Assembly (NCBI GenBank): GCA_018302705.1
Contig: JAGVZI010000011.1
Location: forward strand, 1 to 56,555
Reading direction: 5' to 3'
Length of the DNA: 56,555 nt
From: Candidatus Woesearchaeota archaeon
Lineage (GTDB): Archaea > Nanobdellota > Nanobdellia > SCGC-AAA011-G17 > ARS1403
Shown: in pieces, positions 33 through 28,081 of the stretch
Numbering within the stretch: position 1 is the first letter of the stretch
Layout of the letters: every line of letters starts with the position of its first letter
Program-made: the position numbers and the translations under genes
Notes under the pieces: generated by a model
What the model saw: only the letters and a program-made list of their open reading frames with translations
Databases searched by the model: none
What the model was told of the DNA's origin: nothing

Positions 33-93
33 CGCTTATTTCATCATTTTATTTGATGAACGGCCATAGTGCCCTGGTTCCACCCGATCTCGT

Positions 94-126
94 AATTTCA
101 GATTCTTGCGGGAATTTGGTGAGAAG
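94..126 (+). other. 33-nt BHB intron 1 in 5S rRNA (loop C)
   Basis: Central helix TCTC(88-91)/GAGA(121-124), bulges GTA(92-94) and AGT(125-127), outer helix CGA/TCG, internal hairpin. Cutting after the 2nd bulge base restores the 5S consensus. Confidence 0.85.
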
Positions 127-138
127 TTCGATCTCGGA

Positions 139-166
139 TTAATCGTCTTCCAGATGATTACGAGTG
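139..166 (+). other. 28-nt BHB intron 2 in 5S rRNA
   Basis: Central helix CTCG(133-136)/CGAG(161-164), bulges GAT(137-139) and TGA(165-167), intron stem TAATCGTCT/AGATGATTA. Splicing gives CTCGGAAGTTAAGC. Confidence 0.85.
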
Positions 167-246
167 AGTTAAGCAGGGCAACGCCTATTACTGTACTGTG
201 TTCATGCACGGGAACTTTTAGGTGCTGTTCATCACTTTTTTATTAG

Positions 247-1146
247 TTATGATTTCGCTAAAATCTCTTCGTAAACATCCTTGGCAACATCCGCTCTTAT
301 CGAGAAGCCAAGGCCTTCAACGTTCGCAATCTTCCAAGTATTTATGGCAATTATTTTTTTATTTAAGTTTATCAGCGGCCCGCCAGAATTTCCTGGATTT
401 ATAGGAGCATCTGTCTGCAAATAAATATTCAGCCTATTCGGGCCTGTTCTCTGCTTGGAGCTGACAATGCCTTGAGTGACGCTAAAGCTTAATCCAAGCG
501 GGCTTCCGACGGCAATCACGCTCTCCCCGATCTTTACGTTGTCCATGTCTTCAAATTCTAAAAATGGGAAGTTTCCATTTTCAACACGCAGAACAGCAAG
601 GTCAATATCGGACTCGTATCCAATCAAGTCAGCGCGAAAAGCCTTATTGTCAACAGTGCCGATTATAATATTCTCCTCGTTGCTTTCAATTACATGATAG
701 TTTGTAACTAAATGCTGGGGAGAAACAAAGACGCCAGAGCCAAAACTATTCCCGGCCTTGACAACCACAACGCTATTAATTACGTCCTCGATTATAGAGG
801 AGAAATCCTTGCTCGCCTGAATCTGCACATTTTCCAATTCTTCAAGGCCTTCAGATAATTCTTCTATCGCCCTCTTGCTTTTTTCGCTCTCTTTCAGCAA
901 GGCGTCAATATTGCCTCCAAGGCTTTTAATCGCAGCAGCGCTTTCTTTTCTTAAATTCCCGATCTCATCATCAAGCTCTGTCTTCTGAGAATCAACCTTC
1001 CCATCCAACACTAGCAAAGAATTTTCAACGCCATCAATTTCATTGCTTAAATCTCTTTTCAAGTCATATAATAAATAGCCCTGGAAAATCAGTATAGCTA
1101 CAATTACAAGAAAGGATATGTTCAGAAAGTGCTGGTTTATTCTCAT
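247..1146 (-). CDS. Membrane-anchored trypsin-like (HtrA/S1C-type) serine protease with coiled-coil stalk, no PDZ
   Basis: N-terminal TM, coiled coil, TNYHV / DLA / QTDAPINPGNSGG catalytic triad motifs. Confidence 0.9.
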   Translation of the reverse strand: MRINQHFLNISFLVIVAILIFQGYLLYDLKRDLSNEIDGVENSLLVLDGKVDSQKTELDDEIGNLRKESAAAIKSLGGNIDALLKESEKSKRAIEELSEGLEELENVQIQASKDFSSIIEDVINSVVVVKAGNSFGSGVFVSPQHLVTNYHVIESNEENIIIGTVDNKAFRADLIGYESDIDLAVLRVENGNFPFLEFEDMDNVKIGESVIAVGSPLGLSFSVTQGIVSSKQRTGPNRLNIYLQTDAPINPGNSGGPLINLNKKIIAINTWKIANVEGLGFSIRADVAKDVYEEILAKS

Positions 1147-1191
1147 CTTGCAGTATTAAGAAAATTAATTTAAAAAGTTAATGAAAACAGA

Positions 1192-1584
1192 TTAAACAAA
1201 TTTTTCAGGGTCATCAACGCACTGCCATTCAACGCTGCCATCATTCTTATTAATTGGTGAGCAAATCTCCTCGACGCCGCAAGGCAACGGGCAGGTTTCT
1301 TCTTTCAATTCTTTTTCTTCCTCAAAAGCCTCTATCTTTGCTTCAAGCTCCTCGATTTTTTTTAAAAGGTCGCTCTTTTCTAGTATCAGCCTTTCATTCT
1401 CGCTTCTGAGCCCGGCTACTTCATCAGCCAAGCCATCAGAACTTTCGCCTGAATCTCCGGCATCACTTACAACCCTGCCAGTAACATCTTCTATACCACG
1501 ATTCTGAAAATTCAGTATAATATTAACTAATATAAGGACACTCAGCACGCTCAGCACAACTATCAATACATCTGCCTTTTTCAT
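1192..1584 (-). CDS. Hypothetical membrane-anchored coiled-coil protein with Cys-rich C-terminus
   Basis: N-terminal TM, VTGRVV motif, coiled coil, 4 Cys. Confidence 0.7.
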   Translation of the reverse strand: MKKADVLIVVLSVLSVLILVNIILNFQNRGIEDVTGRVVSDAGDSGESSDGLADEVAGLRSENERLILEKSDLLKKIEELEAKIEAFEEEKELKEETCPLPCGVEEICSPINKNDGSVEWQCVDDPEKFV

Positions 1585-1631
1585 AATACTATAATTATAA
1601 TCTAATCTTTATAAATCTATCTTTAGAGAAT

Positions 1632-2183
1632 TTATTTTCCCTTTCTTTTTTTGATTTTCTCTCTTAATAGCAGGGAATTAGGCACTAATACAACCTCTTT
1701 ATCTCTAGTTTCTATCCGGGTTTCAGTCAGATTTATCTCGATGACTTTTCCAGAAACATCTTTGAATTCTATAAAATCCCCTGTTTCAATTATTTTTTTC
1801 TGATGTATCCAAAAGCTTGCAAAAACATTCGGCACAAAATCTTTTAGGGCTAGTATAACAAAGCTGATAATTATAATAAGGATAATGATCAAGACGATAT
1901 ATAAGAGGATAGTGCTCAAGCCAAGCTGGTTCAGCGCAACAATCACGCCGATAAACAAGACGAGGTAATAAACTCCCTTGCCAAAAATCTGCTCAATAGG
2001 CGCCCTTATCCCGAAGCTTTCTTTCAATATTTTATTTGTCTTAAGCTCGCCCAAAACCTTCGCAGCCAAATTCCCAAGAAACCTCGCTACTAAGAAGGCA
2101 ATCAGCAATACGACAATGGCAGCAATCACCCTGTTCAAATTCCCGCTTACTATAATGTCCAGCACTTGATTGGCATCAACCAT
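1632..2183 (-). CDS. Small-conductance mechanosensitive channel (MscS family) domain protein
   Basis: TM helices followed by GDFIEFKDVSGKVIEINLTETRIET...VLVPNS. Confidence 0.85.
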   Translation of the reverse strand: MVDANQVLDIIVSGNLNRVIAAIVVLLIAFLVARFLGNLAAKVLGELKTNKILKESFGIRAPIEQIFGKGVYYLVLFIGVIVALNQLGLSTILLYIVLIIILIIIISFVILALKDFVPNVFASFWIHQKKIIETGDFIEFKDVSGKVIEINLTETRIETRDKEVVLVPNSLLLREKIKKRKGK

Positions 2184-2266
2184 TTATAATAGCTAAAAAA
2201 ACCCGATATAAAAACTTAATTATTTACAAACCCGTTAGATATAAACATTAATAAAATTAAAACTAA

Positions 2267-2692
2267 CTAATATCTTAGCCTTCTTTTACTAAGATTAATA
2301 ATCCTGCCCCTAGAATTTGGATAGCATGTATTCCCCAATTCTGAACCACTGCCAGTGAATCCTCTCATTCTAGGAAATCTGTACAATTGTCTATCTGAGC
2401 CAACATAAACATTCGGGTGGTATCTGTTTAAACGATATAATAATGTAACGCCTGCCTTGTAATCACCACTCCGGGGGGTTACTTTAACAGGATTAGCCTT
2501 TTTTATAGGTATATCCTCTTCATTCCTCTCGATAGCCTCTTTTAGTAAATCGACCTCCTTCTCAGTAATTTGATTTCCATCTTCAGGGGGTTCCTCCATG
2601 GCTTGGCTCATCTCTCGGGCATCTCCGTTTATCCAGTCAGCCAAATCAGGATCTTCTAGTATATCATATTCCCCACTCATCAGATTTTCCAC
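2267..2692 (-). CDS. Hypothetical protein
   Basis: 141-aa ORF, GTG start with upstream AAGGA, acidic N-terminus. Confidence 0.55.
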   Translation of the reverse strand: MENLMSGEYDILEDPDLADWINGDAREMSQAMEEPPEDGNQITEKEVDLLKEAIERNEEDIPIKKANPVKVTPRSGDYKAGVTLLYRLNRYHPNVYVGSDRQLYRFPRMRGFTGSGSELGNTCYPNSRGRIINLSKRRLRY

Positions 2693-2894
2693 TCCTTAAT
2701 TCATCAAATGTTACCATATCATATAACCCTCGATTTTTCAGTTTATAAAACTTTCTATTTATTACTATATCAAAGTAGTAACGTAAGTTAATTTTTCAAA
2801 ACTATAAGTTGCTATAGAAACGCAGGGAGCATCGCAAAAAAATTTGAGATGGGCGCACGAAACAAATAAAAACTCTTTTTCTTAAGATATTTTC

Positions 2895-3725
2895 ATGCCC
2901 GTAAACCCTACAATACATTATCAGAAGGCAGAGCAGGAATATCTAGCAGCGGATACTCAGAATGAGCAGTTGGTGGCCTTGCAGAAAATGCTTTCTCTTT
3001 GCCCAAAACACAAAGGTTCTGAAAAGCTCCAGAAGCAAATCAAGACAAAGATAGCAAAATTAAAAGATTCAATAAAGAGATCAGCAAAGAAAGGGTCTTA
3101 TCAAAAGGTTTCGATAAAAAAAGAAGGAGCAGCTTTAATCTGCATCGTCGGAACAACGAATTCAGGGAAATCTACGCTTCTAAATAAACTGACAAATGCA
3201 AATGCAAAAGTTGCAGATTATCCATTTACAACAAAAGAGCCAGTTCAAGGCATCTTGGATTATGCAGGAATAAAATTACAAATAGTCGAGATCCCGGCAA
3301 TTGTAGAAAATTTTCAGGAGGCAGAATTAGGGCCGTCGCTGCTTGCAATAATCAAGCAGTCAGATTTGATTATATTAACCTTCAATGCGCCGGAGGAAAA
3401 AAAACTTCTAGACAAGGAGCTGGCAAACATCAATATTAAAAGAATAATCTACAATAATGAGGAAGATTTCAAGGAAAAAATCTGGAGTTCATTAGGCATA
3501 ATAAAAGTTTACACAAAGCAGCCAGGCAAGCCAAGGGATTATCCTCCAGTGGCATTAAAAAAAGGATCAACAGTCCAAAAGCTAGCAGAAATTGTGCACA
3601 AGGATTTTGTTAAAAATTTCAAGTATGCCCGGGTAACAGGGAAATCTGTTAAATTTAAAAATATGCGCTGTGGGTTAGATCATACTTTGTCAGATGAAGA
3701 CATAGTAGAATTCCACACAAAATAA
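2895..3725 (+). CDS. DRG/Obg-family GTPase with TGS domain
   Basis: PKHKG, GTTNSGKSTL, YPFTT motifs; C-terminal TGS (VHKDF...DEDIVEF). Confidence 0.9.
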   Translation: MPVNPTIHYQKAEQEYLAADTQNEQLVALQKMLSLCPKHKGSEKLQKQIKTKIAKLKDSIKRSAKKGSYQKVSIKKEGAALICIVGTTNSGKSTLLNKLTNANAKVADYPFTTKEPVQGILDYAGIKLQIVEIPAIVENFQEAELGPSLLAIIKQSDLIILTFNAPEEKKLLDKELANINIKRIIYNNEEDFKEKIWSSLGIIKVYTKQPGKPRDYPPVALKKGSTVQKLAEIVHKDFVKNFKYARVTGKSVKFKNMRCGLDHTLSDEDIVEFHTK

Positions 3726-3759
3726 AAAAGTTAAATCTTATTTTTATTTTTGTATGTTA

Positions 3760-3957
3760 TTATTTTAAATGTCTTAAAGCCAAGCTCCAAGGTTTTATGG
3801 AGAGGGCAATAGCCAAAATAAGCCAAAGCCATCTTCCTCCAACTAGGATATAATTGCTGATGTAACTGGCAACAAAAAGGGAAAAGAAAAATACGCCTGC
3901 TTTAATTAAAGCGATATCCCACCATTTCAAATTTTTGACAGCTTTTGCAAACCACAT
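3760..3957 (-). CDS. Small membrane protein
   Basis: 65 aa, two TM segments, WDIALIK motif. Confidence 0.65.
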   Translation of the reverse strand: MWFAKAVKNLKWWDIALIKAGVFFFSLFVASYISNYILVGGRWLWLILAIALSIKPWSLALRHLK

Positions 3958-3985
3958 CTTATTTTTTTATTTTTTATTCTTATAT

Positions 3986-4189
3986 TCAAAGCTTTCCCTT
4001 AAACAAGTGAATGCATATTCCCAATGCTATCAAAACCCACGGCCATAAAATTACGTTGCTGAACAAAATACCGCTATGCTGCAAAGCATAAGCCGCACCT
4101 ATTAAAATCAAAGCGACTGCGAAACTTTTGCTGGAAACACCTCCGCACCAGCACCCAATTCCATTTTTACTTCCATTTGCTTTAGCCAT
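3986..4189 (-). CDS. Small membrane protein (LiaF/DUF5668-like)
   Basis: GAGGTG RBS, two TMs, ILWPWVLIALG. Confidence 0.65.
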   Translation of the reverse strand: MAKANGSKNGIGCWCGGVSSKSFAVALILIGAAYALQHSGILFSNVILWPWVLIALGICIHLFKGKL

Positions 4190-4245
4190 AAAACCACCTC
4201 TTTTTTAATTTTGATATATTCTTTTATTTATATATCTTTTTATAT

Positions 4246-4818
4246 CTATTTTGTATCTCCAAGAAAGCCTTTTCCTATCAAGTACATCTCTCTGCTCTCC
4301 TTTCTGCTCGCCTTAGGCTTGGAAATCTTAAAAAAATAAAAATATTTTCTTAATTCCCTGCAAAACTCGTCGAATTCAGCTCCCTGAAAAATCTTGCACA
4401 AAAAATTTCCTTTCGGTTTCAAAACCTGCACAGCTATTTTCCAAGCCTTTCTGCTCAAGTCAGCACTCTCCTCGGAATCAAAGAAGCCTTTTGTCTTAGG
4501 CGAGATGTCGCTCAGCACAACGTCGAATTTTCCAAGTTTTGCAACATCAATTTCATTAACGTCTTCATTAACGAATTCAAACCTGCTGTCTTTAATTTTT
4601 GCTTTTTCAATATCAATGCCCACAACTCTTCTGGCATGAAGCTTCAGGCAGACCTGCACCCAGCCGCCGGGGCTGCATCCAATGTCTAGGACATCGCTGT
4701 TTTTCCTAATTAAATTATATTTCCCATTCAGCTCAATTAGTTTGTAAGCGCTCCTCGCCAGAAAACCTTCTTTCTTTGCTTTCTTGAAATAAAAGTCTTT
4801 TCTTTTAATCATTATCAA
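4246..4818 (-). CDS. rlmE: 23S rRNA U2552 2'-O-methyltransferase RlmE/FtsJ
   Basis: ARSAYKL, LDIGCSPGGW, VLSDISP, KPKASRKESREMY. Confidence 0.93.
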   Translation of the reverse strand: MIMIKRKDFYFKKAKKEGFLARSAYKLIELNGKYNLIRKNSDVLDIGCSPGGWVQVCLKLHARRVVGIDIEKAKIKDSRFEFVNEDVNEIDVAKLGKFDVVLSDISPKTKGFFDSEESADLSRKAWKIAVQVLKPKGNFLCKIFQGAEFDEFCRELRKYFYFFKISKPKASRKESREMYLIGKGFLGDTK

Positions 4819-4835
4819 TTATCTCTAAATTTATC

Positions 4836-5066: not shown

Positions 5067-5108
5067 GCAATTAACTAATTAATGCATATTTAAAAATCTT
5101 GTGACACT

Positions 5109-11095: not shown

Positions 11096-11783
11096 ATGAC
11101 ACTAATAGCAGGGATTGATGAAGCCGGTAGAGGGCTTTAAATTTTAAAGTTCGCCATAAGGTCCAGTAATCGGTCCCTTAACAATCGCAGGAATTTTAAT
11201 CAACGAGGAAGATTCAGCCAGATTAAAAACTATTGGCGCAAAAGATTCTAAGTTGCTGATTCATAAAAAGCGCGTAGCCTTATCAAAGCAGATCCTCAAG
11301 ATAGCGAAAAATCATAAGGTATTAGTTGTCCATCCAGATGAAATAGACTATGCAGTTCATGGCCATGACGGCTTGAATTTAAACTGGCTTGAAGCTAGAA
11401 AAACAGCAGAGATCTTGAATTATTTAAGGCCAGATAAAGCAATTATCGATTGCCCCTCTCCAAATATAAAAGCATATACAAACTATTTAAGAAAATTTAT
11501 TAACAATACTGACTTGGAATTAGTAGTAGAGCACAAGGCAGACAGAAATTTTTACGTTGTAAGCGCGGCCTCGATAATTGCTAAAGTTGCAAGAGAAGAA
11601 GGGGTTGAAAAAATTGAAAAGAAGATCGGGCAGAAAATCGGAACAGGATATATGTCAAATCTTCAGTGCCAGGAATTTGTGAAAAAAAATTTCGACAAAC
11701 ATCCTGAATTATTCAGAAAATCCTGGATGCCTTATAAAAAACAAGTTGAGGAGAAAGAGCAGAAAAAATTAAATGAGTATTAA
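11096..11783 (+). CDS. rnhB: Ribonuclease HII, intron-interrupted: join(11096..11130,11159..11783), 219 aa
   Basis: MTLIAGIDEAGR in one frame; GPVIGPL...KDSK...HKAD...VSAASIIAKVAR in another, separated by 28 nt. Confidence 0.9.
11131..11158 (+). other. 28-nt relaxed-BHB intron in rnhB mRNA
   Basis: Central CGGT/GCCA (one mismatch), bulges AGA and TAA, intron hairpin GCTTTA/TAAAGT. Standard BHB cut positions give GGT AGA GGT CCA (GRGP). Confidence 0.78.
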
Positions 11784-12011: not shown

Positions 12012-15000
12012 ATGACTTACATTAAAAAGATGAAGATACACGGCTTCAAATCTTTCGCGAAGCCCACTGAGCTCCCGTTTTCAAAAGATTTCTCTGCGGT
12101 TATAGGCCCGAACGGAAGTGGGAAGTCATGCCATTATGATACGGTTATAACCATTTCAAGTGGAAAAGAAGTAAAGATTGGAAAGATAGTAGAAGAGCAA
12201 TTGAAGAAAAATCAAAATAAGACTTTAAAAGATGGAGTATATTGTGAATCTCAAGAGCCGTTGGAAATTATATCTATAAATCCAAGTTCTATGAAACAAG
12301 AGATAAAGAAAATCTCTCAATTTATAAAAAGGGAAGGAGAGGAATTATACAATATAAGTACTTCATTGGGAAAGGAATTAAAAGCAACAGGTTGCCATCC
12401 AATAATGGTCTTTAGAGATGGAAAATTAAAGAGCACCTTAATCAGAGACATTAAAGAGAATGATCTTATTGCTTCTCCAAGAATAATAAATACAAGAGAA
12501 GAAAAAAGTTTTGATAAGGATAAATCGAGGCTATTAGGATATGTAATCGGAGATGGATATATTGCTGAAGATAGGATAGAGTTTGTAAACCAAGATAAAG
12601 AAATTTTGCAGGATTTTAAAGAATTATTAATTAAATTATATATTGACCCTAATATAAAAGAAAGATATGAAAAAAATATAACAAGGGTTTATGTAAGAAA
12701 TAAGATCATAGTAAATGATATAAGAAATGCAGTAAAAAGAAACCATCTTGGATCGATAACATCAGAATTTAAAACAATTCCAAATGAAATATTGGGTTCT
12801 GATAAGGAAACAATAAGAAATCTTTTAGCAAGTTTATTTGATACAGATGGCTATATAAGAAAAGATATCTCTATAATAGAGTTCTGTTCTAAGAATGGAA
12901 ATTTAACAAAACAAATTCAAAGACTTTTATTAAGATTTGGAATAATTTCTAAAGTAAAGGAGAGGATTAATTATGCTTATAATACAGAAAATAAAACAAA
13001 GAGATCGTATTATTACCTTTATATCTATGGTTGTGAAAATCTAAAAAATTTCTATATAAATATTCCCCTAAGATGCAAACATAAAAGAGAAACCTTAGAG
13101 AGTTGGGTTTCAAAAAATAAAGTTCCAAATCCAAACAGTGATTTGTTACCAAAGGAAGTTAATAAATATATTAAAAATTTAACGAGTCTGCTTGGGATAA
13201 AAATAAAAAATGAAAAGAAAAAATATCCAAAATTAGGTGCTTACTATGAAGATATATGTCAGCCATCAAGAGAAGGAATAAGAGATTTATTGATCTTCTT
13301 TGAGGATAAATTAGCCAAGATAGTAAATGCATTTTCAGAGATAAGATTAAACAAAGAATCCTTAATGGAGATTCTTCCATTGTTAAACATATCTTATGCT
13401 CAAGCTTCATTAGGAATAGGTCTAGGCAAACACACGATCACCGATAGTTGGAGGTTTCATGGTTGGAATGGGAAAAAAGAAAATTTACAAAGTTTAAATG
13501 ATTTCATCAGGGCAACGATAGGGGATAGGTTGATAGAAATTAAAAAAATATTTTTGGAATTACAAACAATTTCGAATTCAGATATATACTGGGAAAAAAT
13601 TGTGTCAATAAAAAAAACTGAAAAAGTGCCATATGTTTATGATTTAACAGTTTTGGATAATCATAATTTTATCGGTGATGGAGTCTTTGTTCACAACAGC
13701 AACGTCGTCGATTCATTATGCTTCGTCCTCGGCAGGTTATCATCAAAATCAATGCGTGCAGAAAATTCAGCAAAATTAATTTACAATGGAGGAAAGAATG
13801 GAAAGCCGGCAACTGAGGCTTATGTCTCTATTTTATTTGACAATTCTAACAGCTCATTCCCTGCAAAGGCTAAAGAGATAGAAGTCAAGAGGGTTGTCAG
13901 GCACAACGGGCAGTCAAAATATTTTATTAACGGGGAGTTAAGGACAAGGCAGCAAATTCTCGACCTGTTGGCAGCGGCAAAAATAAACCCCGACGGCCAT
14001 AATATAATCTTGCAAGGGGACATCACGCATGCAGCAGAAATGCCTCCTGAAGAGCGCAAGTATATAATAGAAGACATAGCAGGAATCTCTGTTTACGAGG
14101 ACAAAAAAGAAAAGGCTGTCAGGGAGCTGGAGAAAGTTGAATCGCAGTTAAAAGAAGCCGATATAGTCTTGGCAGAGAGAGGCACTTATTTAAAAGAACT
14201 AAAAAAAGATTATGAACAAGCATCAAGGTACAAAGAGCTGGAAAAAAATATCAGCAGAAACAAAGCCACTTATCTGCATCTTCAGGTAAAACAAAAAGAA
14301 GACAAATTAAACAAGGTAGTTTCTTTAATAAGCAAAAATCAATCAGAAATAGATTCGATTAATAACAAAGTCTCGCAACAGCAGCAGGAGTTTGAGGGAA
14401 AAAAGCAGGAATTGCAGAAATTAAAAGACGAAATTGAAAAAAGCGGGGAATCATCCCAGTTAGCTTTGCACAGCGAAGTGGAATTATTGAAGGAGCAGCT
14501 GGCGGATGATAAAATCCGGTTTTCAACCATTCAAAATGAAATAAGCTCCTTGAATGAAAGAACCTCACAGCTTAAATCCTCCTTGCAGGATTCGGATAAA
14601 AAGGTCCAGTCGCTGCAAAAAAAGAAATCTCAGCTGGAGTCAGAATTAGCAGATTTGAAAGAAGAGGCATCAAAAAAGTCCCAGGAGTTAAGCAAGCTTA
14701 AAGAAAAGCACAGCCCTGATGATTTGGAAGCAGAGGTAACGAAGCTCGACTCAAAAATAGAATCCCTCAAGTCTCAAAATCTCGACGATAAAAAATTAAG
14801 TTTGCTAAGGGAAAAAGATAAAGCAGAAATAAGATTAGGCACAATAGAAAAGCTTGCAAACAAGCAGCAGCTTGAAAAGTTGGCTAGCTTAAAGCAAAAC
14901 TTCAAGCAGGCAGCCCAGAATTTAACTAGGGTTTCAGAGGAAGATTCGACATTGCTGAACCAACTATCTTCAGCCAGGATAAAAATACAGCAGCATAAAG

Positions 15001-16991
15001 AAGAGCATGCAAGGTTAAGCACGCAAAAAACATTGGCAAAAGAGCACTCTGCTAATTTGGCAGTCAGCAAAATAAAATCGCTGAACATGCAGGGGGTTTA
15101 CGGAACATTCTCGGAACTAGCCCATGTTCCTTCAGAGTATTCATTGGCAATTGAAGTTGCAGCTGGAAGCAGGATCAATAGCATCGTCGTTAAAGATGAC
15201 AGTATTGCAGCAAAATGCATTCAGTATCTTAAAACAAATAAATTAGGCACAGCAATATTCCTGCCACTGAATAAATTAAAAAATCCGCCGCTGCAAAAAA
15301 TTAATCACGGCCGCGGCTTGGCAATAGATATAATCAAATTTGATCCGCAATTTAAATCAGCATTTCAATATGTCCTGGGCAGCACAATTATCGTCGATAA
15401 CATAGAGGCGGCAAGAAAAATAGGTGTTGGAAAATGCCGCATGGCAACTTTGGACGGGGATTTAGTTGAAACCTCTGGTGCGATGATAGGTGGCTTTAGA
15501 AGAAAGCATTCTTCCTTGTTCTTGGCTCCGGGAATAGAAAAAAATCTTGATTCATTATCCTCGGAAATATCAAAGCTTGGCTCATTGATAAAGGATCTTG
15601 AGAAAAAGCTTGTCGTTAACGAGGGGAACATGAGCAAGGCAAGAGAGGAAAAATCAACTCTGGAAGGGGAAATATTGAAAATACAGGCATCAGTTGGCGA
15701 CATCGAACAAGTTTTGAAGGAAAAGCAGGAGCTCACAGCAAAACTTAAGCAGCTGAACTCAGAGATTTCAGGGATAGAATCAGCTGTTAGCAAAAATCTA
15801 GCGTTATTGAAGGATTTAAACAAAAAAAGGTCTTTCTTAAGGGAAAAGATAAGTCAGAAAAGAAATCCGAAAATGATGGCGCAGATAGAATCCCTGGAAA
15901 AGTTAATGCAGGAATTAAATGAAAAAAGAATCTTGCGGAATTCAGAAATAAATAACATAGCGTCGCAGATAAAAGAGCTGATACTTCCTGAAAAAGAATC
16001 GATGCAGAAAATAGTAAAGCAGAATGCATCCCAGCTAGAGCAGTTTAATTCAGAGATAAAGCGTTTATCTTCTTCAACATCGGAAAAAACATCTCAAATA
16101 AAAGATAAAGAAAAGCAGGAAGCTAAGCTCTACAGCAATTTCAGGGATATGCTGAGCAAGAGGGAAAAATTAAATCAGCTCTTGCAGGGGCATGAAATAA
16201 AGATTAACAATGAAAAGAATAAGACCCAAATTTTCGAGGAGCGTATAAACAACTTCTCGTTGGACAAGGCAAAAATAGCCTCTGAGATAGCAGGCTTAAA
16301 TCAGGAAATGCAGGAATACAAAGGTGTTTCATTAAGAAAGGGGATGTTAGAATCAGAGTTAAAAGATGAAATATCAAAATTTGAATCACTTATAAAGAAT
16401 CTTGGAAATGTAAACCTCCGCGCTTTAGAAATATATGAGCAGGTGCAGAGAGAATACGAATCCCTTGAGCTGAAGTCAAGCAAGCTTAAAGAGGAAAAGC
16501 AGGATGTCCTGAAAGTTATAGATGAAGTAGAATCAAAAAAGACTTCGACTTTCATGAAAACTTTTAGCAAAATCAACGGCAATTTCGAATCAATCTTCAG
16601 CCAGTTAACAACAAAAGGTACAGCTCATTTAGTTCTTGAAAACCCAGGAAAGCCATTGGAGGGCGGAGTGCAGATTATGGTTAAGATAGCTCACAATAAA
16701 TTCCTCGACATTAAAAGCCTCTCAGGAGGGGAAAAAACCCTGACAGCATTAGCCTTTATATTCTCAATTCAAGACCATGATCCAGCGCCGTTTTACATGC
16801 TGGACGAGGTAGATGCTGCATTAGATAAAAAGAATTCAGAAAAATTATCAGAGCTTATTAAGAGGTATTCGCAAAAGGCGCAATACATTGTTATTACGCA
16901 TAACGATTCTGTAATATCTGGAGCAGATAAATTGTATGGAGTTTCAATGCACAAGGACGGAATGAGTCATGTTGTAAGTCTGAAGGTTTAA
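12012..16991 (+). CDS. smc: Chromosome segregation protein SMC (intein-containing)
   Basis: GFKSF, GPNGSGK, hinge GVYG...GGF, LSGGEK, LDEVDAALD. Confidence 0.95.
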   Translation: MTYIKKMKIHGFKSFAKPTELPFSKDFSAVIGPNGSGKSCHYDTVITISSGKEVKIGKIVEEQLKKNQNKTLKDGVYCESQEPLEIISINPSSMKQEIKKISQFIKREGEELYNISTSLGKELKATGCHPIMVFRDGKLKSTLIRDIKENDLIASPRIINTREEKSFDKDKSRLLGYVIGDGYIAEDRIEFVNQDKEILQDFKELLIKLYIDPNIKERYEKNITRVYVRNKIIVNDIRNAVKRNHLGSITSEFKTIPNEILGSDKETIRNLLASLFDTDGYIRKDISIIEFCSKNGNLTKQIQRLLLRFGIISKVKERINYAYNTENKTKRSYYYLYIYGCENLKNFYINIPLRCKHKRETLESWVSKNKVPNPNSDLLPKEVNKYIKNLTSLLGIKIKNEKKKYPKLGAYYEDICQPSREGIRDLLIFFEDKLAKIVNAFSEIRLNKESLMEILPLLNISYAQASLGIGLGKHTITDSWRFHGWNGKKENLQSLNDFIRATIGDRLIEIKKIFLELQTISNSDIYWEKIVSIKKTEKVPYVYDLTVLDNHNFIGDGVFVHNSNVVDSLCFVLGRLSSKSMRAENSAKLIYNGGKNGKPATEAYVSILFDNSNSSFPAKAKEIEVKRVVRHNGQSKYFINGELRTRQQILDLLAAAKINPDGHNIILQGDITHAAEMPPEERKYIIEDIAGISVYEDKKEKAVRELEKVESQLKEADIVLAERGTYLKELKKDYEQASRYKELEKNISRNKATYLHLQVKQKEDKLNKVVSLISKNQSEIDSINNKVSQQQQEFEGKKQELQKLKDEIEKSGESSQLALHSEVELLKEQLADDKIRFSTIQNEISSLNERTSQLKSSLQDSDKKVQSLQKKKSQLESELADLKEEASKKSQELSKLKEKHSPDDLEAEVTKLDSKIESLKSQNLDDKKLSLLREKDKAEIRLGTIEKLANKQQLEKLASLKQNFKQAAQNLTRVSEEDSTLLNQLSSARIKIQQHKEEHARLSTQKTLAKEHSANLAVSKIKSLNMQGVYGTFSELAHVPSEYSLAIEVAAGSRINSIVVKDDSIAAKCIQYLKTNKLGTAIFLPLNKLKNPPLQKINHGRGLAIDIIKFDPQFKSAFQYVLGSTIIVDNIEAARKIGVGKCRMATLDGDLVETSGAMIGGFRRKHSSLFLAPGIEKNLDSLSSEISKLGSLIKDLEKKLVVNEGNMSKAREEKSTLEGEILKIQASVGDIEQVLKEKQELTAKLKQLNSEISGIESAVSKNLALLKDLNKKRSFLREKISQKRNPKMMAQIESLEKLMQELNEKRILRNSEINNIASQIKELILPEKESMQKIVKQNASQLEQFNSEIKRLSSSTSEKTSQIKDKEKQEAKLYSNFRDMLSKREKLNQLLQGHEIKINNEKNKTQIFEERINNFSLDKAKIASEIAGLNQEMQEYKGVSLRKGMLESELKDEISKFESLIKNLGNVNLRALEIYEQVQREYESLELKSSKLKEEKQDVLKVIDEVESKKTSTFMKTFSKINGNFESIFSQLTTKGTAHLVLENPGKPLEGGVQIMVKIAHNKFLDIKSLSGGEKTLTALAFIFSIQDHDPAPFYMLDEVDAALDKKNSEKLSELIKRYSQKAQYIVITHNDSVISGADKLYGVSMHKDGMSHVVSLKV
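12126..13697 (+). mobile_element. Intein (about 524 aa) with LAGLIDADG homing endonuclease in the SMC Walker A
   Basis: GSGK|SCHYDT...TGCHP...LLGYVIGDG...LASLFDTDG...VYDLTV..HNF...VHN|SNVVD; more AT-rich than the exteins. Confidence 0.92.
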
Positions 16992-20909: not shown

Positions 20910-23900
20910 TTATTCAACCAAAAAGCCAATTACCTCTGTTACTTCATCCTTATCACTACTGACAGTAACAATTGCATATATTATCTCGTCATCAACACTA
21001 TCAGGAACAACAGCTGAAAAGCTTCTTGTTACTGTCTTCTTTTTCTTAATATCGAATTCGTCGCTTCTCTCGTAATAATTAAGCTGGGGTATATTCAAGG
21101 TAATTCTTACATCATTTTCCTTTATATTCCCTTTATTATCAACAGCAACATCAACATCAAATAGCTCTTCTTTTTTCACTGTCATCCAATTATTGACAAT
21201 TATGCTCTTCACATTCAGAACATGTCTTTTAATCTCAGTTTTCTTCAGAGCTGGTTTTATTGATATAGGCTCTAAGTTGTCATTAACAGTGATTGTTACT
21301 ATTTTGCGATCGCTCCCCCCCTTTAATTCTCCATTGCTTGCTAAATCCACTACCTTGAACATCACCATATAGCCAACCCCCCCTTGGGTGTTGCTTGGAG
21401 TCCAGCTAAATACCTCATTATTTAATGTAGCGCCAGCAGGTAATTTAACCACTTCAAATCTTAAACTATCATTATCAGGGTCGCTTCCTTCTAAACTCAA
21501 TACCAAATTTTCCCCCTCATTTATTGTTACTTTCCCCACCACATTTCCATCTCTTTTAACAGTTAAAATTGGGTTTCTATTTGCAGCAGGAGGGGCAGCC
21601 TCAACGCTGAACACCGCAGTATCGCTGTCTCTTGCGCCGTCAGGATCAACAGCAGTAAACTCAATTCTCTCGCTTCCAGCAAAATCAGAAGGATAAGAAA
21701 TTCTAGCTATCCTATTTGAATCAATATTTACAGTTAATCTAGAAGCGCCAGAGACAATCCAGCTAATCTCATTATCATTATTATCAAGATCGATAACAAA
21801 TGTGTCTAAGTTAATCTCGTTAAACCTCTCTCCTGCTTTTATTGCCTGATCAGGAATGTCTCCGACAATAGGGGCTTGGTTTACCCTAAGGATTTCATTA
21901 ACAACAAGAGTGAAACCTCTTGATACAGTTATCTTGGAATCGCTAACTCCAACAACGACATTATATTGTCCTGCTTTATCAGCCCTCCAGCTAATCATTC
22001 CATTGGAATCAATGCTCATCCCTCTTGGCTTTTCAATTAGGGAATATGTTAAAGGATCATTGTCAGCATCGTAAGCAGCAACTTGATAAACAAACCAAGC
22101 TCCCACTGATGTCTTTTGATCATCGAGGTCCTGCAGGAATATAGGAGCATCATTAACAGGGCTTACTGTTATTGAAATTTTTCCTTCATTGCTGCTGTCT
22201 GAAATCCCATCATTTACTTTAAATGTAAATAAGTCATTCCCATTGAAATTATTATTTGGAATATAAGTTACCCTTCCGAGTCTTGGATTAAAGTTTGATA
22301 AAATTCCATTTGATGGATTAGACACTATTATAAATCTCAAACTATCATTGTCAGCATCGCTCCCTCTTAGCATTATCATTTTAGCTGTATCCTCATCAGT
22401 TGTCACAGATCCATCATCTGCAAAAGGTGCCCGGTTTGTATTTGCCACAATGATATAAAATCTTTGAGCTGCTCTTAATGAGCCATCTGAAACCTCTACG
22501 ATAACTTCATGGCTTCCAGCCTGCTCAAAACTTGGAGTCCACGATATTAATCCAGTATCTGGATTTATCTCCATCCCCACAGGGTTCTTTATTAATAAAA
22601 ATGTTAAAGCATCTCCATCAGGATCATTGGCTTCTACATCATACCTGTAAGCAGCTCCTTCTCTTGCAGCTGTCACTGGAGATGAAGTTATTACAGGAGC
22701 ATTATTAACTTTAATTCTTTCCTTAACAACAATGCGGACAGCTTCATAATCACTTAATTTTCCGTCGCTAACACTGACAGTAAAAGTATGAATTCCGATA
22801 TCGCTTTCAGACGTCCTCCAAATAAATTTATTTCCGCTTTGAGAGAATCTATCTCCGGTGATTCCGTATGTTAAGTCATCATTATCAGCATCATGCGCAT
22901 TAACAGTTAATCCAATAGTATCGCCGGCAAACACTTCTCTAGCTCCCTCAACACTGTCAATTACTGGCGCATTGTTTAAAATAACAATTTTTCTCTCAAC
23001 TTTTATGCTGACACTATCGGGCTCGCTCCATTTGCTTCCATCATCTTTAACTAAGAATTCAACTAAATGCGTGCTTTCTTTGTCAAATACATAAGAAAAT
23101 TCCTTTTCGTTGCTGACTTTCTCGCCGTTTATCAGCCATTTGTATTCTATAATGGATCCATCGCTATCTTCTCCTATACCAACAAACTCAACACTATCCC
23201 CTATATATATAGTTAAATCTTTTTCAGGCTTGACAATTTCAGCAATAGGTATATTATTTATTCTTTCCTTGACATTTATATTTACACTTTCACTAACGTA
23301 TCCATTTTTCCCGTCTTCAACACGGAAATTAAATGAGTAATCTCCTTTATCTCCTATGTTTGTCTGCCATCTGAAAACATTTGCGCTTTTTGAAAATAGG
23401 CTGCTATCAACACTATATAATAGGGTGTCATTGTCATCATCGTGCGCATTAACAGCGAGCTCAACTAACTCCCCCTCAAATACTTCTCTTGCGCCGATAA
23501 TATCATCAATTACTGGAGCCCTGTTAACATCAGCTACATTTATATTTACATTTTTTCTGACGACTCCATTGTATGAATCATCTGCTGTAACAGTCACAAC
23601 ATGAATTCCTGAGTCTGTAAATCCAGTCTGCCATTCTCCATTATTGTTTAAAGGCGATGAAAATGTAACTTTAACTTTATCATTATCTGAGTCTGAGACA
23701 AAAGTTTCTACTTTAGCTAACTCGCCTTCATTAACATTTACATCGAATACATCTAAAGTTGGAAGCCTGTTTACATCCTTGACTTTTACTTTTATTTTTT
23801 CAACGTCGTAGTTTCCTTTGCTATCAATTACTGTGAATGTAACTTCAAATTCAGTGCTTGGCTCATTTCCCAGTATTCCAAAACTTATGAATTTTAAAAT

Positions 23901-24830
23901 TCCATTAATTAAACCACCGTGACCAACAGCGTCAAAACTTGGCTTCCACGTGAAACCATTATTTATGAATGTAGAACCTGTTGGAAGATTTTCTGCGTTG
24001 ATTGAAACTATATCGTTATCCTCGTCTGCTGCTGTAACTGAGAATCTTAATTCTGAATTTTCAAATGCTTCTTTGTTTCCAATCGCCTGTAAAACTGGCT
24101 CGTGATCACCTTCGTCTTCGATTATTAAGTCTCTGTTGTCAATCACAAATCTTTTCTCGTACCACCCGCCCCAATTCTTTCCGTCGTAAGCCCTTGCTTT
24201 CACAACTGCATCCTCGTCAAACCTAATGAATTCAAATCCGTCGTTTGTAGGATCTCTGCTGTTAAAGCTGCAAACATCACCCTCGCAAAAAGCGCTGTAC
24301 TCATTTCCTTTTGCAACTACTCTGCTTTCATAATCTGTGATCTTATCATTGTCAGCATCACTAGCAGCTATTACAAAAGAAAACAAGCCTTCATTTTCAG
24401 TAATTGCAATGTCGGTAACAACAGGGTTATTATTAACTGCCTCGCTAGCTAGAACATGCAAGTCCAGTGTTTGTATTTGGAAATCTTTTCTGCCATCTGT
24501 AACTTCTAAATAGATTATATAATCGCCAGCATCTTTATAATATTCTTTAGTAACTAAATAAAAATCGCCAAATATGTAATCATTAACTACTAAGTCTCTT
24601 TCATAGATGTATTCGTATTCATCATTCATTAAAAATAAATTAATATTTAAAGGCCTGCTAAAGCTGCCAACATCAACTTGAAATTTAACGCTGTCGCCAT
24701 TATTAATAGTAACCTCCCTGCTTCCATCTTGCCATACTAAGCCGGAAGTAACAGCATTAACGCTTGCAGCAAAACTAGAAAAACTTGCAGCAGATAATAA
24801 TATCATTAAGATCATTAATAGCTTTCTCAT
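20910..24830 (-). CDS. Large secreted cadherin/PKD/Ig-repeat surface protein
   Basis: Signal peptide; repeated N.AP...A.D.DND.L.Y...W...VSDG units. Confidence 0.88.
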   Translation of the reverse strand: MRKLLMILMILLSAASFSSFAASVNAVTSGLVWQDGSREVTINNGDSVKFQVDVGSFSRPLNINLFLMNDEYEYIYERDLVVNDYIFGDFYLVTKEYYKDAGDYIIYLEVTDGRKDFQIQTLDLHVLASEAVNNNPVVTDIAITENEGLFSFVIAASDADNDKITDYESRVVAKGNEYSAFCEGDVCSFNSRDPTNDGFEFIRFDEDAVVKARAYDGKNWGGWYEKRFVIDNRDLIIEDEGDHEPVLQAIGNKEAFENSELRFSVTAADEDNDIVSINAENLPTGSTFINNGFTWKPSFDAVGHGGLINGILKFISFGILGNEPSTEFEVTFTVIDSKGNYDVEKIKVKVKDVNRLPTLDVFDVNVNEGELAKVETFVSDSDNDKVKVTFSSPLNNNGEWQTGFTDSGIHVVTVTADDSYNGVVRKNVNINVADVNRAPVIDDIIGAREVFEGELVELAVNAHDDDNDTLLYSVDSSLFSKSANVFRWQTNIGDKGDYSFNFRVEDGKNGYVSESVNINVKERINNIPIAEIVKPEKDLTIYIGDSVEFVGIGEDSDGSIIEYKWLINGEKVSNEKEFSYVFDKESTHLVEFLVKDDGSKWSEPDSVSIKVERKIVILNNAPVIDSVEGAREVFAGDTIGLTVNAHDADNDDLTYGITGDRFSQSGNKFIWRTSESDIGIHTFTVSVSDGKLSDYEAVRIVVKERIKVNNAPVITSSPVTAAREGAAYRYDVEANDPDGDALTFLLIKNPVGMEINPDTGLISWTPSFEQAGSHEVIVEVSDGSLRAAQRFYIIVANTNRAPFADDGSVTTDEDTAKMIMLRGSDADNDSLRFIIVSNPSNGILSNFNPRLGRVTYIPNNNFNGNDLFTFKVNDGISDSSNEGKISITVSPVNDAPIFLQDLDDQKTSVGAWFVYQVAAYDADNDPLTYSLIEKPRGMSIDSNGMISWRADKAGQYNVVVGVSDSKITVSRGFTLVVNEILRVNQAPIVGDIPDQAIKAGERFNEINLDTFVIDLDNNDNEISWIVSGASRLTVNIDSNRIARISYPSDFAGSERIEFTAVDPDGARDSDTAVFSVEAAPPAANRNPILTVKRDGNVVGKVTINEGENLVLSLEGSDPDNDSLRFEVVKLPAGATLNNEVFSWTPSNTQGGVGYMVMFKVVDLASNGELKGGSDRKIVTITVNDNLEPISIKPALKKTEIKRHVLNVKSIIVNNWMTVKKEELFDVDVAVDNKGNIKENDVRITLNIPQLNYYERSDEFDIKKKKTVTRSFSAVVPDSVDDEIIYAIVTVSSDKDEVTEVIGFLVE

Positions 24831-24864
24831 TTTAACCCCCTAACCACAATTAAGAGACATCAGC

Positions 24865-26019
24865 CTAAAACCTATAGGTTAATGTTCCTCCAGCAGTGCC
24901 AGATCCTGATTTTGTCCTCGCTTGGAGTCCAAATCCTAGATTCCCATAATTATATCTTAATCCTGCCATTGCAGAAACATACAATTCATTATTTCTGGAT
25001 GCGTCTTTATGAACATCTACATTAGGCTCTCCAAATACATTATCATTCCTATCATACAATGTTTCTACAGCAACTCTCCTTGAATCCCTGTCAGTAGTTT
25101 CCCTGCCAGCCCCTGCGTCACAAGTAAAGGTAAAATCCTTATAATCTATCTGGGGATTAACCAATAATTCCAGCGCATATTTCCTGACAGATCTAGTTAG
25201 CTCTTCGGCAGATTCAAGCCTAGTTCCAGTAATCCTGTTTCTTTGAGTTGCCAGCCTAGCTGTTTCAGAGTCAGAATCCTTTTCAGGCAATTCACCGCCT
25301 AAAGTAATTCCTAGTCTGTATCCATCACCAATTTCATAAAAGCCACTCAAAGCCAGGTTTAATCTTTCGTTAGTTTGATACCCAACACCTGCTTCATAGC
25401 TTAATCTATCCATGCTTAATGTATCCCTTTGTGTATAATCATCCTCTTCCTCAGTCCTTTCAGCAACTTGACTTCCAGCTTCAGCTCCCTCTTCAGCTCC
25501 GCCCATTCTATTCAGCAAAGTGTCAACATCAGCATTGAACCTAGAAACAGTTTCATCAACTGAAAGGTAATGTTCTCTGCCTGCAATTTTCTCATAAGAA
25601 TCTCTGGAATTTTGATCTAATTCAACCTTAGATAATAGATTATTGGCTTCTCCAGCTGTAACTAAACTATCTCTGATTGCATTATTAAAGGCGCTAAAAC
25701 TGCTGTAAGTGAAATCATTAATAGCCCTTATTGCTTCATATAATTTAGCTGCCCTTTCAGCATCTTCCATTGTTCTCCCTCTAAGCCCTCTTAAGCCTGT
25801 AGTGTCTCCAGTAGTCTCAGCCATTCTAATCTCTCCTTTTTGTCTATCAACCTTTACAGCTAAACTATCGTATGGAGCCCTTAAATTACTTTGAAACTGC
25901 TCTATATTCACAGCATTTACATTTTCAGGAACCTGAATACTTTCAGCAATAGCCCTGTCAGCAGCAAGTGAAATCAATCCGCTTACTCCGCCTGCAATTA
26001 AAATTCTTTTGATACTCAT
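24865..26019 (-). CDS. Secreted protein with helical N-domain and C-terminal beta-barrel-like domain
   Basis: Signal peptide from MSIKR; alternating G/aromatic strands ending GGTLTYRF. Confidence 0.7.
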   Translation of the reverse strand: MSIKRILIAGGVSGLISLAADRAIAESIQVPENVNAVNIEQFQSNLRAPYDSLAVKVDRQKGEIRMAETTGDTTGLRGLRGRTMEDAERAAKLYEAIRAINDFTYSSFSAFNNAIRDSLVTAGEANNLLSKVELDQNSRDSYEKIAGREHYLSVDETVSRFNADVDTLLNRMGGAEEGAEAGSQVAERTEEEDDYTQRDTLSMDRLSYEAGVGYQTNERLNLALSGFYEIGDGYRLGITLGGELPEKDSDSETARLATQRNRITGTRLESAEELTRSVRKYALELLVNPQIDYKDFTFTCDAGAGRETTDRDSRRVAVETLYDRNDNVFGEPNVDVHKDASRNNELYVSAMAGLRYNYGNLGFGLQARTKSGSGTAGGTLTYRF

Positions 26020-26020
26020 T

Positions 26021-26743
26021 TTATTTTCCTCCCATCTCAGTCTCATATTGATCGAAATCCATTCCATATCCTCTAGGATTTCCATTCTCATCAGTTGCAA
26101 AAACATATTTTTCGCCGTCGCGAACGCTAATGTCTCTAGTTCTTTGCCTGGCCACCTCTCCATTCATAACTACTGCCCTGCCAGCTAAAACATCTCTAAC
26201 TATCCTGTTATGTCCTTCTAGCATAAACTCTAAGCTTCTCTTTAAAGTAACAAAGTCCTCAAAATCCAAAGAGCCATCTTTTGGTTTAGATCCCCAATAT
26301 CCGATGCTGGATATATAATCTATATCTCTGTCAAACCCGGGGTATTGCACCAAAAAGCTATCCAAGCTCGCTCTTCTTGCCATTTCTAATTCTTCTCTAG
26401 CAGCATTAACCCTTCTTTCATACTCGCCAGTTAATTCTCCTTTCCTTTGGTTATATTCAGAAGATAGACTCTCTAATTTTGTGTTATAGTGAGTAATTGT
26501 TTCTTGTAAAGCAGTATCTTTTTTAGCTAATTCTCCTGTTAAGCTATCATTAGCATCTTTTAAACTGTCAACAATAGGGACGTATTTTCTTTCAACAAAT
26601 TCTACAGCATTTTCTTTGTACAACTTATTAACCAACCCATATCTTGGGGTAGTTAATCCTGCTGCAACCGCTATCGCAACACCGCTAATTCCAGCAACAA
26701 CAAGCTTTCTAGTATTCCATCTTTTCAATTTAATATCTCTCAT
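26021..26743 (-). CDS. Membrane-anchored coiled-coil hypothetical protein
   Basis: N-terminal hydrophobic segment then coiled coil; overlaps the upstream ATPase stop. Confidence 0.75.
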   Translation of the reverse strand: MRDIKLKRWNTRKLVVAGISGVAIAVAAGLTTPRYGLVNKLYKENAVEFVERKYVPIVDSLKDANDSLTGELAKKDTALQETITHYNTKLESLSSEYNQRKGELTGEYERRVNAAREELEMARRASLDSFLVQYPGFDRDIDYISSIGYWGSKPKDGSLDFEDFVTLKRSLEFMLEGHNRIVRDVLAGRAVVMNGEVARQRTRDISVRDGEKYVFATDENGNPRGYGMDFDQYETEMGGK

Positions 26744-27810
26744 TTTAAAGACCTCTCAATTAAGTAGTCCGCCACAGCCCTTATCTCCCTGTAAAAGACT
26801 TCATTTCCGCTATCAAAATTGGATAAAAAAGGAACCCCTTTGTTGGAAGCTGATTTAATTCCCTCATGATTCAAGACTAGGAAGTGGCTATCAAAACTCA
26901 AACCCTCCAGGCTTCTAATAAACTGATCATATAATATCTCTGCATTTTCTTTATGAACTGTTTTTCCATAATGCCCGTCAAAAACACCTCCGCTCAAAGC
27001 CCTTACAAATCTTGTATTCAAAAATCCTTCAATATTGCCTTGTGGAATCTTGTTAACCAACAAAATATTCCCTCCCTTGCTCAAATCATGTTTGCCAGTG
27101 CTTAGTATGTTAGAAATGTTCATAACTCCGTCAAAGCTGGCAAAGTTTTCAAAGTCGACAATATAGACCCTCTGATCGCAGCCAATAAATGCATCTAGAT
27201 ATTGAGGCATACCTGCAGGGAAATCTAAAACAAATACGTGATAACCATCTACTTTTCTGATTTCATCCAGTATTGTTCCATGTGCTTTGTTCAGTGCCCT
27301 TTCTCTCTCCGCCCTGCTTCCTTTCTCTCTGGAAGCTTCGCCAGGGGGATTAGTTAAAAAATAATTCAGTTGTGATCTGCTTTTGCTTTCAATTCCAACT
27401 TCGGTTAAACTTTTTCTTTGTCTCTTGGATGTTCTTTTGCCGTCAACTTTAGCACTAACTCTTTTTCCAACAACGACATCAATCAAAGATCTATTAACTC
27501 TGGAATCCCCGTTAACACCATCGGGCAAATCTTCAAGAACATATCCCAGTCCATTAGGGTCATACATATCAACATCAACATAGCCAACTTTTAAGCCCAT
27601 GCTTGCTAAAACATGAGATAAGTTAATTGCAATTTGTGTTTTGCCAATCCCTCCTTTAGGAGCACCGACAGCCCAGGCTTGAACCTTCCAGTCTCTTCTC
27701 TTTAATTCATCACCGACGATTTTAACCAAGCCAGCCTCAGTTTGCTCTTCGCTAAGGATCTCAACAGCTTCACCAAATCTTCTATTTTGAAAAACATCCA
27801 AATAATTCAT
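26740..27810 (-). CDS. MinD/ParA-family ATPase
   Basis: Deviant Walker A PKGGIGKT, VDVD, LDFPAG, LLVNK. Confidence 0.85.
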   Translation of the reverse strand: MNYLDVFQNRRFGEAVEILSEEQTEAGLVKIVGDELKRRDWKVQAWAVGAPKGGIGKTQIAINLSHVLASMGLKVGYVDVDMYDPNGLGYVLEDLPDGVNGDSRVNRSLIDVVVGKRVSAKVDGKRTSKRQRKSLTEVGIESKSRSQLNYFLTNPPGEASREKGSRAERERALNKAHGTILDEIRKVDGYHVFVLDFPAGMPQYLDAFIGCDQRVYIVDFENFASFDGVMNISNILSTGKHDLSKGGNILLVNKIPQGNIEGFLNTRFVRALSGGVFDGHYGKTVHKENAEILYDQFIRSLEGLSFDSHFLVLNHEGIKSASNKGVPFLSNFDSGNEVFYREIRAVADYLIERSLK

Positions 27811-27981
27811 CTTAACCCAAAATTTTTTAATTCAGACGCTTTTTAAATCTTTCTAAAATTTACTATTTTAAAATAGCTACAAAAATAAAAGGGTTTGTCA
27901 CAGCAAGTAACAACACAGTATAGATTTTCTAAAGAATATTTTTAAGAAAATAAATCTGGTGTAACTGAAAGTTAAAACAAT

Positions 27982-28081
27982 TGGGGACGGAGGGATTTGA
28001 ACCCCCATCAACCGGTCTGGAGCATTGACTAACCTTTAAATTTTAGTTATCGGTCACACTACCGGATTATGCTACGCCCCC
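27982..28081 (-). tRNA. trnW: tRNA-Trp(CCA) with 27-nt intron at position 30/31
   Basis: Acceptor GGGGGCG/CGTCCCC, T-loop GTTCAAATC, spliced anticodon arm ACCGG-CTCCAGA-CCGGT; 73 nt after splicing. Confidence 0.92.
28024..28050 (-). other. BHB intron in tRNA-Trp
   Basis: Central helix TGAC/GTCA, bulges CGA and ATG, intron stem TAACT/GGTTA. Confidence 0.88.

Follow-up and report, generated by a model that had tools for sequence, protein, structure and literature searches.

In a 56,555-nucleotide (nt) stretch of DNA from a Candidatus Woesearchaeota archaeon (assembly GCA_018302705.1, contig JAGVZI010000011.1, positions 1 to 56,555; hereafter the window, contig C12 of host genome G000), we identified four insertions of 27-33 nt, which interrupt the 5S rRNA gene at two sites, the RNase HII gene rnhB, and the gene for tRNA-Trp. 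We consider it about 90% probable that these insertions are archaeal bulge-helix-bulge (BHB) introns, on the grounds of their predicted structure, their precise absence from relatives, the covariation of their helices, and the presence of genes for the splicing endonuclease EndA and the ligase RtcB. Three further introns of the same kind were found elsewhere in the genome, in the protein-coding genes rtcB and aEF-2.

The host genome is an 851-kb assembly of 34 contigs (~35% G+C, 97.7% complete). It was compared with relatives G001 to G040, which belong to the same genus, family or order, so that 41 genomes were searched in all; G001 (same genus) and G010 (a complete genome of 736,802 nt) were taken whole.

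Interrupted genes in the window and their common structure

The features of the window are listed below, with the number of pairs in the central helix of the predicted motif (H2) and in the inner helix (H3) given for each putative intron.

56-233, + strand: 5S rRNA gene, 178 nt (Rfam RF00001, 47.3 bits)
94-126, + strand: putative 5S intron 1, 33 nt, in the loop C / helix III region; H2 4/4, H3 3; absent from the 5S gene of G001
127-138, + strand: 12-nt 5S micro-exon between the two introns, which aligns to mature sequence in 5S genes that have no intron
139-166, + strand: putative 5S intron 2, 28 nt; H2 4/4, H3 9; picked up by a strict motif scan
11096-11130, + strand: rnhB exon 1, 11 codons and 2 bases, matching the N-terminus encoded in G001 and G008, where the gene is uninterrupted
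11131-11158, + strand: putative rnhB intron, 28 nt, which splits the conserved DEAGRG-P motif and brings an in-frame stop and a frame shift; H2 3/4, H3 9
11159-11783, + strand: rnhB exon 2 (Pfam RNase_HII, profile positions 42-197)
27982-28081, - strand: tRNA-Trp(CCA) gene with its intron (Rfam RF00005, 46.6 bits)
28024-28050, - strand: putative tRNA-Trp intron, 27 nt, at the non-canonical position 30/31 (the usual one is 37/38); H2 4/4, H3 5

The first-pass annotation of this DNA had placed hairpin introns in these three genes, and we found all four insertions where it put them, each with a BHB core; those in 5S rRNA and rnhB are precise in comparison with G001. Its claim that a tetramer near the 3' end is complementary to the exon was likewise borne out: in every window intron, bases -6 to -3 of the exon pair with the equally numbered bases of the intron, with 4/4 pairs in three introns and 3/4 in rnhB. 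Each strand of this helix is separated from its junction by two unpaired bases and followed by one more after it, and the remainder of the intron forms a hairpin that abuts the 4-base-pair (bp) helix, which is the layout of the 3-4-3 BHB motif. The cuts were placed after the second base of the bulge, a register taken from the BHB literature. The inner helix comprises 3-9 bp in the window introns and 3-10 bp in the genome overall, and the narrow range of intron sizes follows from the geometry, as a 9-bp stem and a 3-nt loop give 28 nt. The introns were also said to be unrelated in sequence, and indeed no extended similarity between them is apparent by eye.

To assess how often such a motif arises by chance, we counted a placement as a pass when the central helix had at least 3 of 4 pairs and the inner helix at least 3 pairs. 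All 7 introns of the genome (four in the window and three elsewhere; central helix 4/4 in six and 3/4 in rnhB) passed. Among the controls, only 3 of the 266 shifted placements did so, and 1801 of the 200000 (0.9%) drawn at random with lengths of 27-33 nt. The same rule holds across non-coding RNAs (5S rRNA and tRNA) and mRNAs. No group I or group II ribozyme core was found in the window, where Rfam at gathering thresholds yields 5S rRNA and tRNA alone and the inserts are 27-33 nt long.

The 5S gene is the sole 5S match in the assembly, and its Rfam alignment has 62 nt where the model has 3. Removal of positions 94-126 and 139-166 leaves 117 nt, the length of the 5S gene of G001, to which the remaining sequence aligns end to end. 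Among the 36 5S matches obtained from the 41 genomes, 28 are 113-117 nt long and 8 are longer. Site 1 is also filled in G003, G034, G036, G039 and G025, and site 2 in G003, G025, G023 and G014; both sites are used in other families as well.

In rnhB, the frame that opens with the ATG at 11096 is broken after 14 codons, and the RNase HII frame is resumed at 11160, shifted by one base. Removal of the insertion recreates DEAGRGP and yields a predicted product of 219 amino acids (aa), compared to 14 aa unspliced. Of 30 related loci, 9 have an intron at the same site, 14 (including G001 and G008) have the motif intact, and in 7 the motif was not found. Across the 9 intron sequences, 93.8% of the cells are paired, compared to 71.1% after shuffling (0 of 500 shuffles as high), and control placements with slid partners are 21-46% paired. 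Both sides of the helix have changed in 6 of the 9 pairs; the variants of the central helix are CGGT/GCCA, CGGC/GCCA, TGGC/GCCA, CGGT/ACCG, CGGG/CCCG and TGGT/ACCA. In G012 (contig C59, 14691-16709), another site of the same gene probably holds an intein, since the match to rnhB there lies in a 691-aa open frame and breaks at residues 158/161. The rnhB and tRNA-Trp intron hairpins each contain an AAATTT-type A/T palindrome (11134-11148 and 28030-28043, respectively), which may be due to chance in A+T-rich DNA.

Without its intron, the tRNA-Trp gene is called Trp/CCA by aragorn with a score of 121.5; the intron of the corresponding gene in G001 is at 37/38 rather than 30/31. A search of the host genome for T-arms with acceptor stems returned 35 candidate pre-tRNAs, of which 7 are 70-74 nt long and the others 83-173 nt. 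Automated intron solutions are reliable at a high aragorn score only; the high-scoring solutions put single introns after raw positions 16, 22, 23 and 31 and also in the neighbourhood of 38-40, and low-scoring solutions (‘SeC’, 4-base anticodons) were set aside as probably wrong. In a separate region of the genome (contig C4, 24055-24352, + strand), three interrupted tRNA genes are arranged head to tail, with pre-tRNAs of 98, 86 and 107 nt. The number of tRNA genes is 30 according to aragorn with introns allowed and 26 according to Rfam, tallies that fit the difficulty of obtaining complete tRNA sets for DPANN archaea noted in the accessible portion of PMC5829648.

Introns in mRNAs, their turnover and their overlap with intein sites

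The first-pass annotation had described micro-introns as pervasive and inferred that many genes annotated as frameshifted pseudogenes could be spliced. To census mRNA introns, we compared the open reading frames (ORFs) of G001 and G010, of which 779 and 493, respectively, matched in the host genome, to that genome by tblastn and sought adjacent matches split by extra DNA; the census is blind to introns common to all three genomes, genes without homologues, and introns beside very short exons. Including rnhB, we identified 4 introns in 3 genes among these 779 and 493 comparable ORFs. Further BHB-interrupted genes thus exist in the genome, as had been anticipated, whereas the expectation of many spliced pseudogenes was not borne out: micro-introns are common in tRNA genes and rare in mRNAs, so that ‘pervasive’ holds for the former and not for the latter. 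The three putative introns outside the window are the following.

Contig C26, 10568-10595, - strand: rtcB intron 1, 28 nt, in the motif HWG-YG; H2 4/4, H3 9
Contig C26, 10457-10486, - strand: rtcB intron 2, 30 nt, in the motif GFDINCG, with an in-frame stop; H2 4/4, H3 4
Contig C8, 8243-8274, - strand: aEF-2 intron, 32 nt, in the P-loop Lys codon of AHIDHGKTT; H2 4/4, H3 10

The predicted spliced ORFs are 486 aa for rtcB and 721 aa for aEF-2, compared to 72 and 32 aa unspliced, and Pfam confirms the identity of both products. All four mRNA introns lie near the 5' end (codons 12, 32, 72 and 105), so that the unspliced products are short. The aEF-2 P-loop Lys codon and one rtcB Asn codon are cut by the insertions and could be recreated only by joining at the RNA level. 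Each of rnhB, rtcB and aEF-2 has a single locus in the genome. The two rtcB micro-introns are 81 nt apart, and two rtcB introns are also present in G023 and G025, at partly different positions.

Several other routes to introns were tried and abandoned. The strict motif-only scan of the genome yielded 92,634 matches and was dropped in favour of the homology approach; a BHB scan combined with ‘ORF rescue’ gave 39,217 observed compared to 34,283 expected cases, the best-ranked of which were gene-to-gene junctions. The remaining candidates with split high-scoring segment pairs, other than rtcB and aEF-2, were spurious frames or ordinary length differences. A search for terminal exons retrieved rnhB, its remaining matches being conserved upstream DNA read as protein, and a scan for in-frame insertions of 5-25 aa found BHB-like folds in 18 of 361 and 14 of 257 cases, with the second rtcB intron alone convincing.

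Intron content differs among closely related genomes. Within the genus, both 5S introns are present in G000 and G003 and neither in G001, and the rnhB intron is present in G000, G002 and G003 and absent from G001. The 30 aEF-2 loci comprise 11 that are uninterrupted, 11 with a micro-intron alone, 3 with an intein alone (G002, G014 and G028), 2 with both (G017 and G022), and 3 that are unclear. The aEF-2 introns occupy four nucleotide positions across the relatives.

Ile codon: G003, G005
Between Asp and His: G006, G023, G025, G040, G017, G022
Lys codon, phase 1: G000, G001, G008, G038
Lys codon, phase 2: G007

The first rtcB motif has an intron in six genomes, at three positions, and the second in five genomes, also at three positions. 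BHB solutions were obtained for 13 aEF-2 introns (those of G038 and G022 being weak) and for 8 rtcB introns of relatives. The differing intron positions among species of a single genus indicate that gain and loss are ongoing, and this turnover of 5S, rnhB, tRNA-Trp and aEF-2 introns supports the earlier suggestion of an active gain process.

In aEF-2 and rtcB, introns and inteins interrupt identical Pfam profile positions (GTP_EFTU 16/17 and RtcB 49/50). In G001, the second motif of rtcB is the exact site of an intein, and six further rtcB genes have open frames of 810-1010 aa that are split at the same query residue and presumably contain inteins as well. All seven intron positions concerned (four in aEF-2 and three in rtcB) precede the intein insertion point by 1-13 nt, and none follows it. 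Both sites alternate between intron, intein and empty within one genus. In G017 (L188) and G022 (L179), the aEF-2 P-loop carries a micro-intron (33 and 38 nt, respectively) and an intein 9 nt apart. A third intein site lies in the window itself, where the SMC gene (12012-16991, + strand, 1659 aa) contains a LAGLIDADG intein inside the Walker A loop (P-loop). By frame size, SMC contains an intein in 10 relatives (including G001, G002, G004, G010, G013, G015, G017, G028 and G036) and is uninterrupted, at 1139-1182 aa, in at least 21; no frame-breaking micro-intron was found at the intein site in these intein-less genes, of which there are at least 21. The link between intron and intein sites is thus real at two of the three sites tested, aEF-2 and rtcB but not SMC.

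This overlap could mean that BHB micro-introns arise repeatedly, in this Woesearchaeota-like order, at DNA sites targeted by intein homing endonucleases, a tentative idea that we consider unlikely given the co-occurrence of intron and intein at aEF-2 in G017 and G022 and the SMC intein site without micro-introns. Were it true, either intron gain would be coupled to endonuclease cutting and repair or introns and inteins would compete for niches, and introns would originate in a way that has not been described for archaea. If introns served to protect homing sites, they and inteins would be expected to exclude each other; as a general rule, such shielding is weakened by the two genomes with both elements, and the SMC site also counts against it. 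Some archaeal rRNA introns encode homing endonucleases, and the BHB introns could accordingly be the decayed remnants of larger introns of that kind. Decay would explain the location of the introns in highly conserved motifs and the hot spots that aEF-2 and rtcB share with inteins, one of which, the aEF-2 intein of G002, has a LAGLIDADG domain. However, no long ORF-bearing BHB intron was found at these sites in the 41 genomes, where every long insertion is an in-frame intein, and the presence of several positions per hot spot, with unrelated intron sequences, fits repeated small gains better, so that we regard decay as improbable.

Splicing enzymes and the case for excision

The type of EndA, which the first-pass annotation had proposed to identify, was determined from the genome. 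We identified one gene, encoding 193 aa with both the N-terminal and the C-terminal domain (PF02778 and PF01974 both matched), which is alpha4-like; tblastn and phmmer searches of the genome detected no paralogue that could serve as a second subunit. The layout expected of an alpha4-type EndA (a single gene of about 180 aa, both domains, no second subunit gene) is present, and the protein would assemble into a tetramer. Its closest solved relatives are the catalytic subunit of N. equitans and the homotetramer of M. jannaschii. The alignment to the M. jannaschii enzyme (1A79) is gapless over residues 77-230, so that no specificity-loop insertion is seen there, and the 6-residue insertion found in N. 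equitans 3IEY_A is lacking. RtcB matches PF01139 at profile positions 50-426.

We infer that the predicted BHB introns are cut and joined as follows. In the transcript, four bases of the exon close to the insertion, on its upstream side, would pair with four bases near the 3' end of the intron, with a 3-nt bulge after each strand of the 4-bp helix and the remainder of the intron forming a hairpin stacked on it. The single EndA would make one cut in each bulge, and RtcB would then ligate the exons, giving mature 5S rRNA and tRNA-Trp and, in rnhB, rtcB and aEF-2, a restored reading frame. As every intron carries a complete BHB, a plain EndA could act at any position in any RNA. Since rtcB itself is split, RtcB would be needed to mature its own mRNA.

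Several observations weigh against BHB splicing. The helix formed by the two exons outside the bulges is weak in the host genome (0-3 bp), so that the motifs are probably not strict hBHBh'; in relatives, some aEF-2 introns have up to 5 bp there. The inner helix by the junction of 5S intron 1 has just 3 bp, and the free fold of this intron is unlike the BHB fold (-13.1 vs. -9.8 kcal/mol); for 5S intron 2, the free minimum-free-energy fold is almost identical to the BHB fold. The central helix of rnhB contains a C.A mismatch in G000, G002 and G003, that of aEF-2 a U.U mismatch in G001, and the latter helix is weak in G038 (2/4 pairs). In addition, the aEF-2 solution of G022 is weak (inner helix of 1 bp), and G021 yielded no credible BHB solution for aEF-2. 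Finally, the EndA of the host genome aligns without gaps to the strict M. jannaschii enzyme, while non-canonical introns have been tied to EndAs with the extra loops L1-L3, according to the accessible portion of PMC5829648. The near-canonical motif at non-canonical positions may be the reason why a plain EndA suffices.

For the mRNA insertions, an explanation that requires no cutting is translational bypass, in which the ribosome hops over the insert. In T4 gene 60 and in the 27-55-nt ‘byp’ inserts of yeast mitochondria, such elements resemble those described here in their size (28-32 nt in the mRNAs), hairpin and stop soon after the break. The same architecture is present in 5S rRNA and tRNA, however, neither of which is translated; no contiguous triplet exists for the Lys codon of aEF-2 or the Asn codon of rtcB, both split by the insertions; no matching take-off and landing codons were found on reading the rnhB, rtcB and aEF-2 sequences; and the exon-intron helix covaries, which hopping would not need, all of which makes bypass very improbable. 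We give hardly any credence to the interrupted genes being pseudogenes or assembly artefacts with accidental BHB-like folds, even though the unspliced frames stop after 14-72 codons and the 34-contig assembly contains no match anywhere to 16S or 23S rRNA, despite its completeness rating: relatives whose genomes were assembled independently have the same interruptions, with intron sequences that differ and pairing that is kept, the flanking exons are highly conserved, there is one copy each of aEF-2, 5S rRNA and RtcB in a genome rated 97.7% complete, and the motif occurs by chance in ~1% of placements.

Comparison with known systems

If the BHB introns are spliced as predicted, the same machinery appears to be needed for the GTP-binding loop of a translation factor, RNase HII, 5S rRNA and the joining ligase, and the dependence of RtcB on itself for its own mRNA is testable. 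Gene callers will mark essential genes of this kind as broken, and tRNA and rRNA finders will miss or mis-score others, which affects completeness estimates and metabolic inferences for DPANN archaea. With its rapid gain and loss of introns at defined hot spots, a compact genome of this sort is, moreover, a tractable system for studying the origin of introns in prokaryotes.

The nearest precedent is the BHB intron in the cbf5 pre-mRNA of Crenarchaeota, reportedly described by Watanabe in 2002, Yoshinari in 2006 and Yokobori in 2009, as cited in PMC5829648 and PMC12397907, in work that is said to connect mRNA splicing to a hetero-oligomeric endonuclease. As in cbf5, a protein-coding gene contains an intron for the tRNA-splicing endonuclease that is gained and lost between relatives, with excision here being predicted. 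Unlike cbf5, the hosts are rnhB, rtcB and aEF-2, the lineage is a DPANN/Woesearchaeota-like order, the single EndA is alpha4-like, several positions are used per motif, and the introns are 23-38 nt long. In the parts of the literature that were available, no report was found of archaeal BHB introns in mRNAs other than cbf5, and the reference list of a 2025 paper still has the cbf5 work alone for archaeal mRNA introns. Within the same limits, the literature on introns and the splicing endonuclease in Woesearchaeota covers tRNA and group I introns, and no report was found of an intron inside archaeal 5S rRNA, a broader 5S search giving processing papers only.

BHB introns also occur in the 16S and 23S rRNAs of Crenarchaeota, which, as here, are interrupted at conserved sites with a patchy distribution; the host in the present case is instead 5S rRNA, with two sites 12 nt apart. 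A more distant parallel is the HAC1/XBP1 mRNA, which is cut by IRE1 and, in animals, joined by RtcB in a stress-regulated manner. The two systems share a short non-spliceosomal mRNA intron with stem-loops and an RtcB-type ligase that restores the frame (predicted here), whereas the nuclease and the motif differ and no sign of regulation is seen here. The tRNA introns resemble those that the accessible portion of PMC5829648 describes for Thermoproteales, ARMAN and other DPANN archaea in lying outside 37/38, in disrupting many genes and in leaving tRNA sets incomplete. In those systems, broad specificity is attributed to the L1-L3 loops, whereas the EndA studied here can be aligned with that of M. 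jannaschii over residues 77-230 with no insertion.

Inteins, such as those in aEF-2 of G002 and RtcB of G001, occupy the same conserved hot spots and are likewise removed after transcription without harming the host protein. They are, however, in-frame elements of 200-500 aa that are removed at the protein level, whereas the micro-introns are 23-38 nt long, often break the frame and would have to be removed at the RNA level. Taken together, the occurrence of introns in 5S rRNA and mRNAs, the dependence of rtcB on its own product and the hot spots shared with inteins would, judging from the sequences compared here, extend known BHB splicing beyond its described range.

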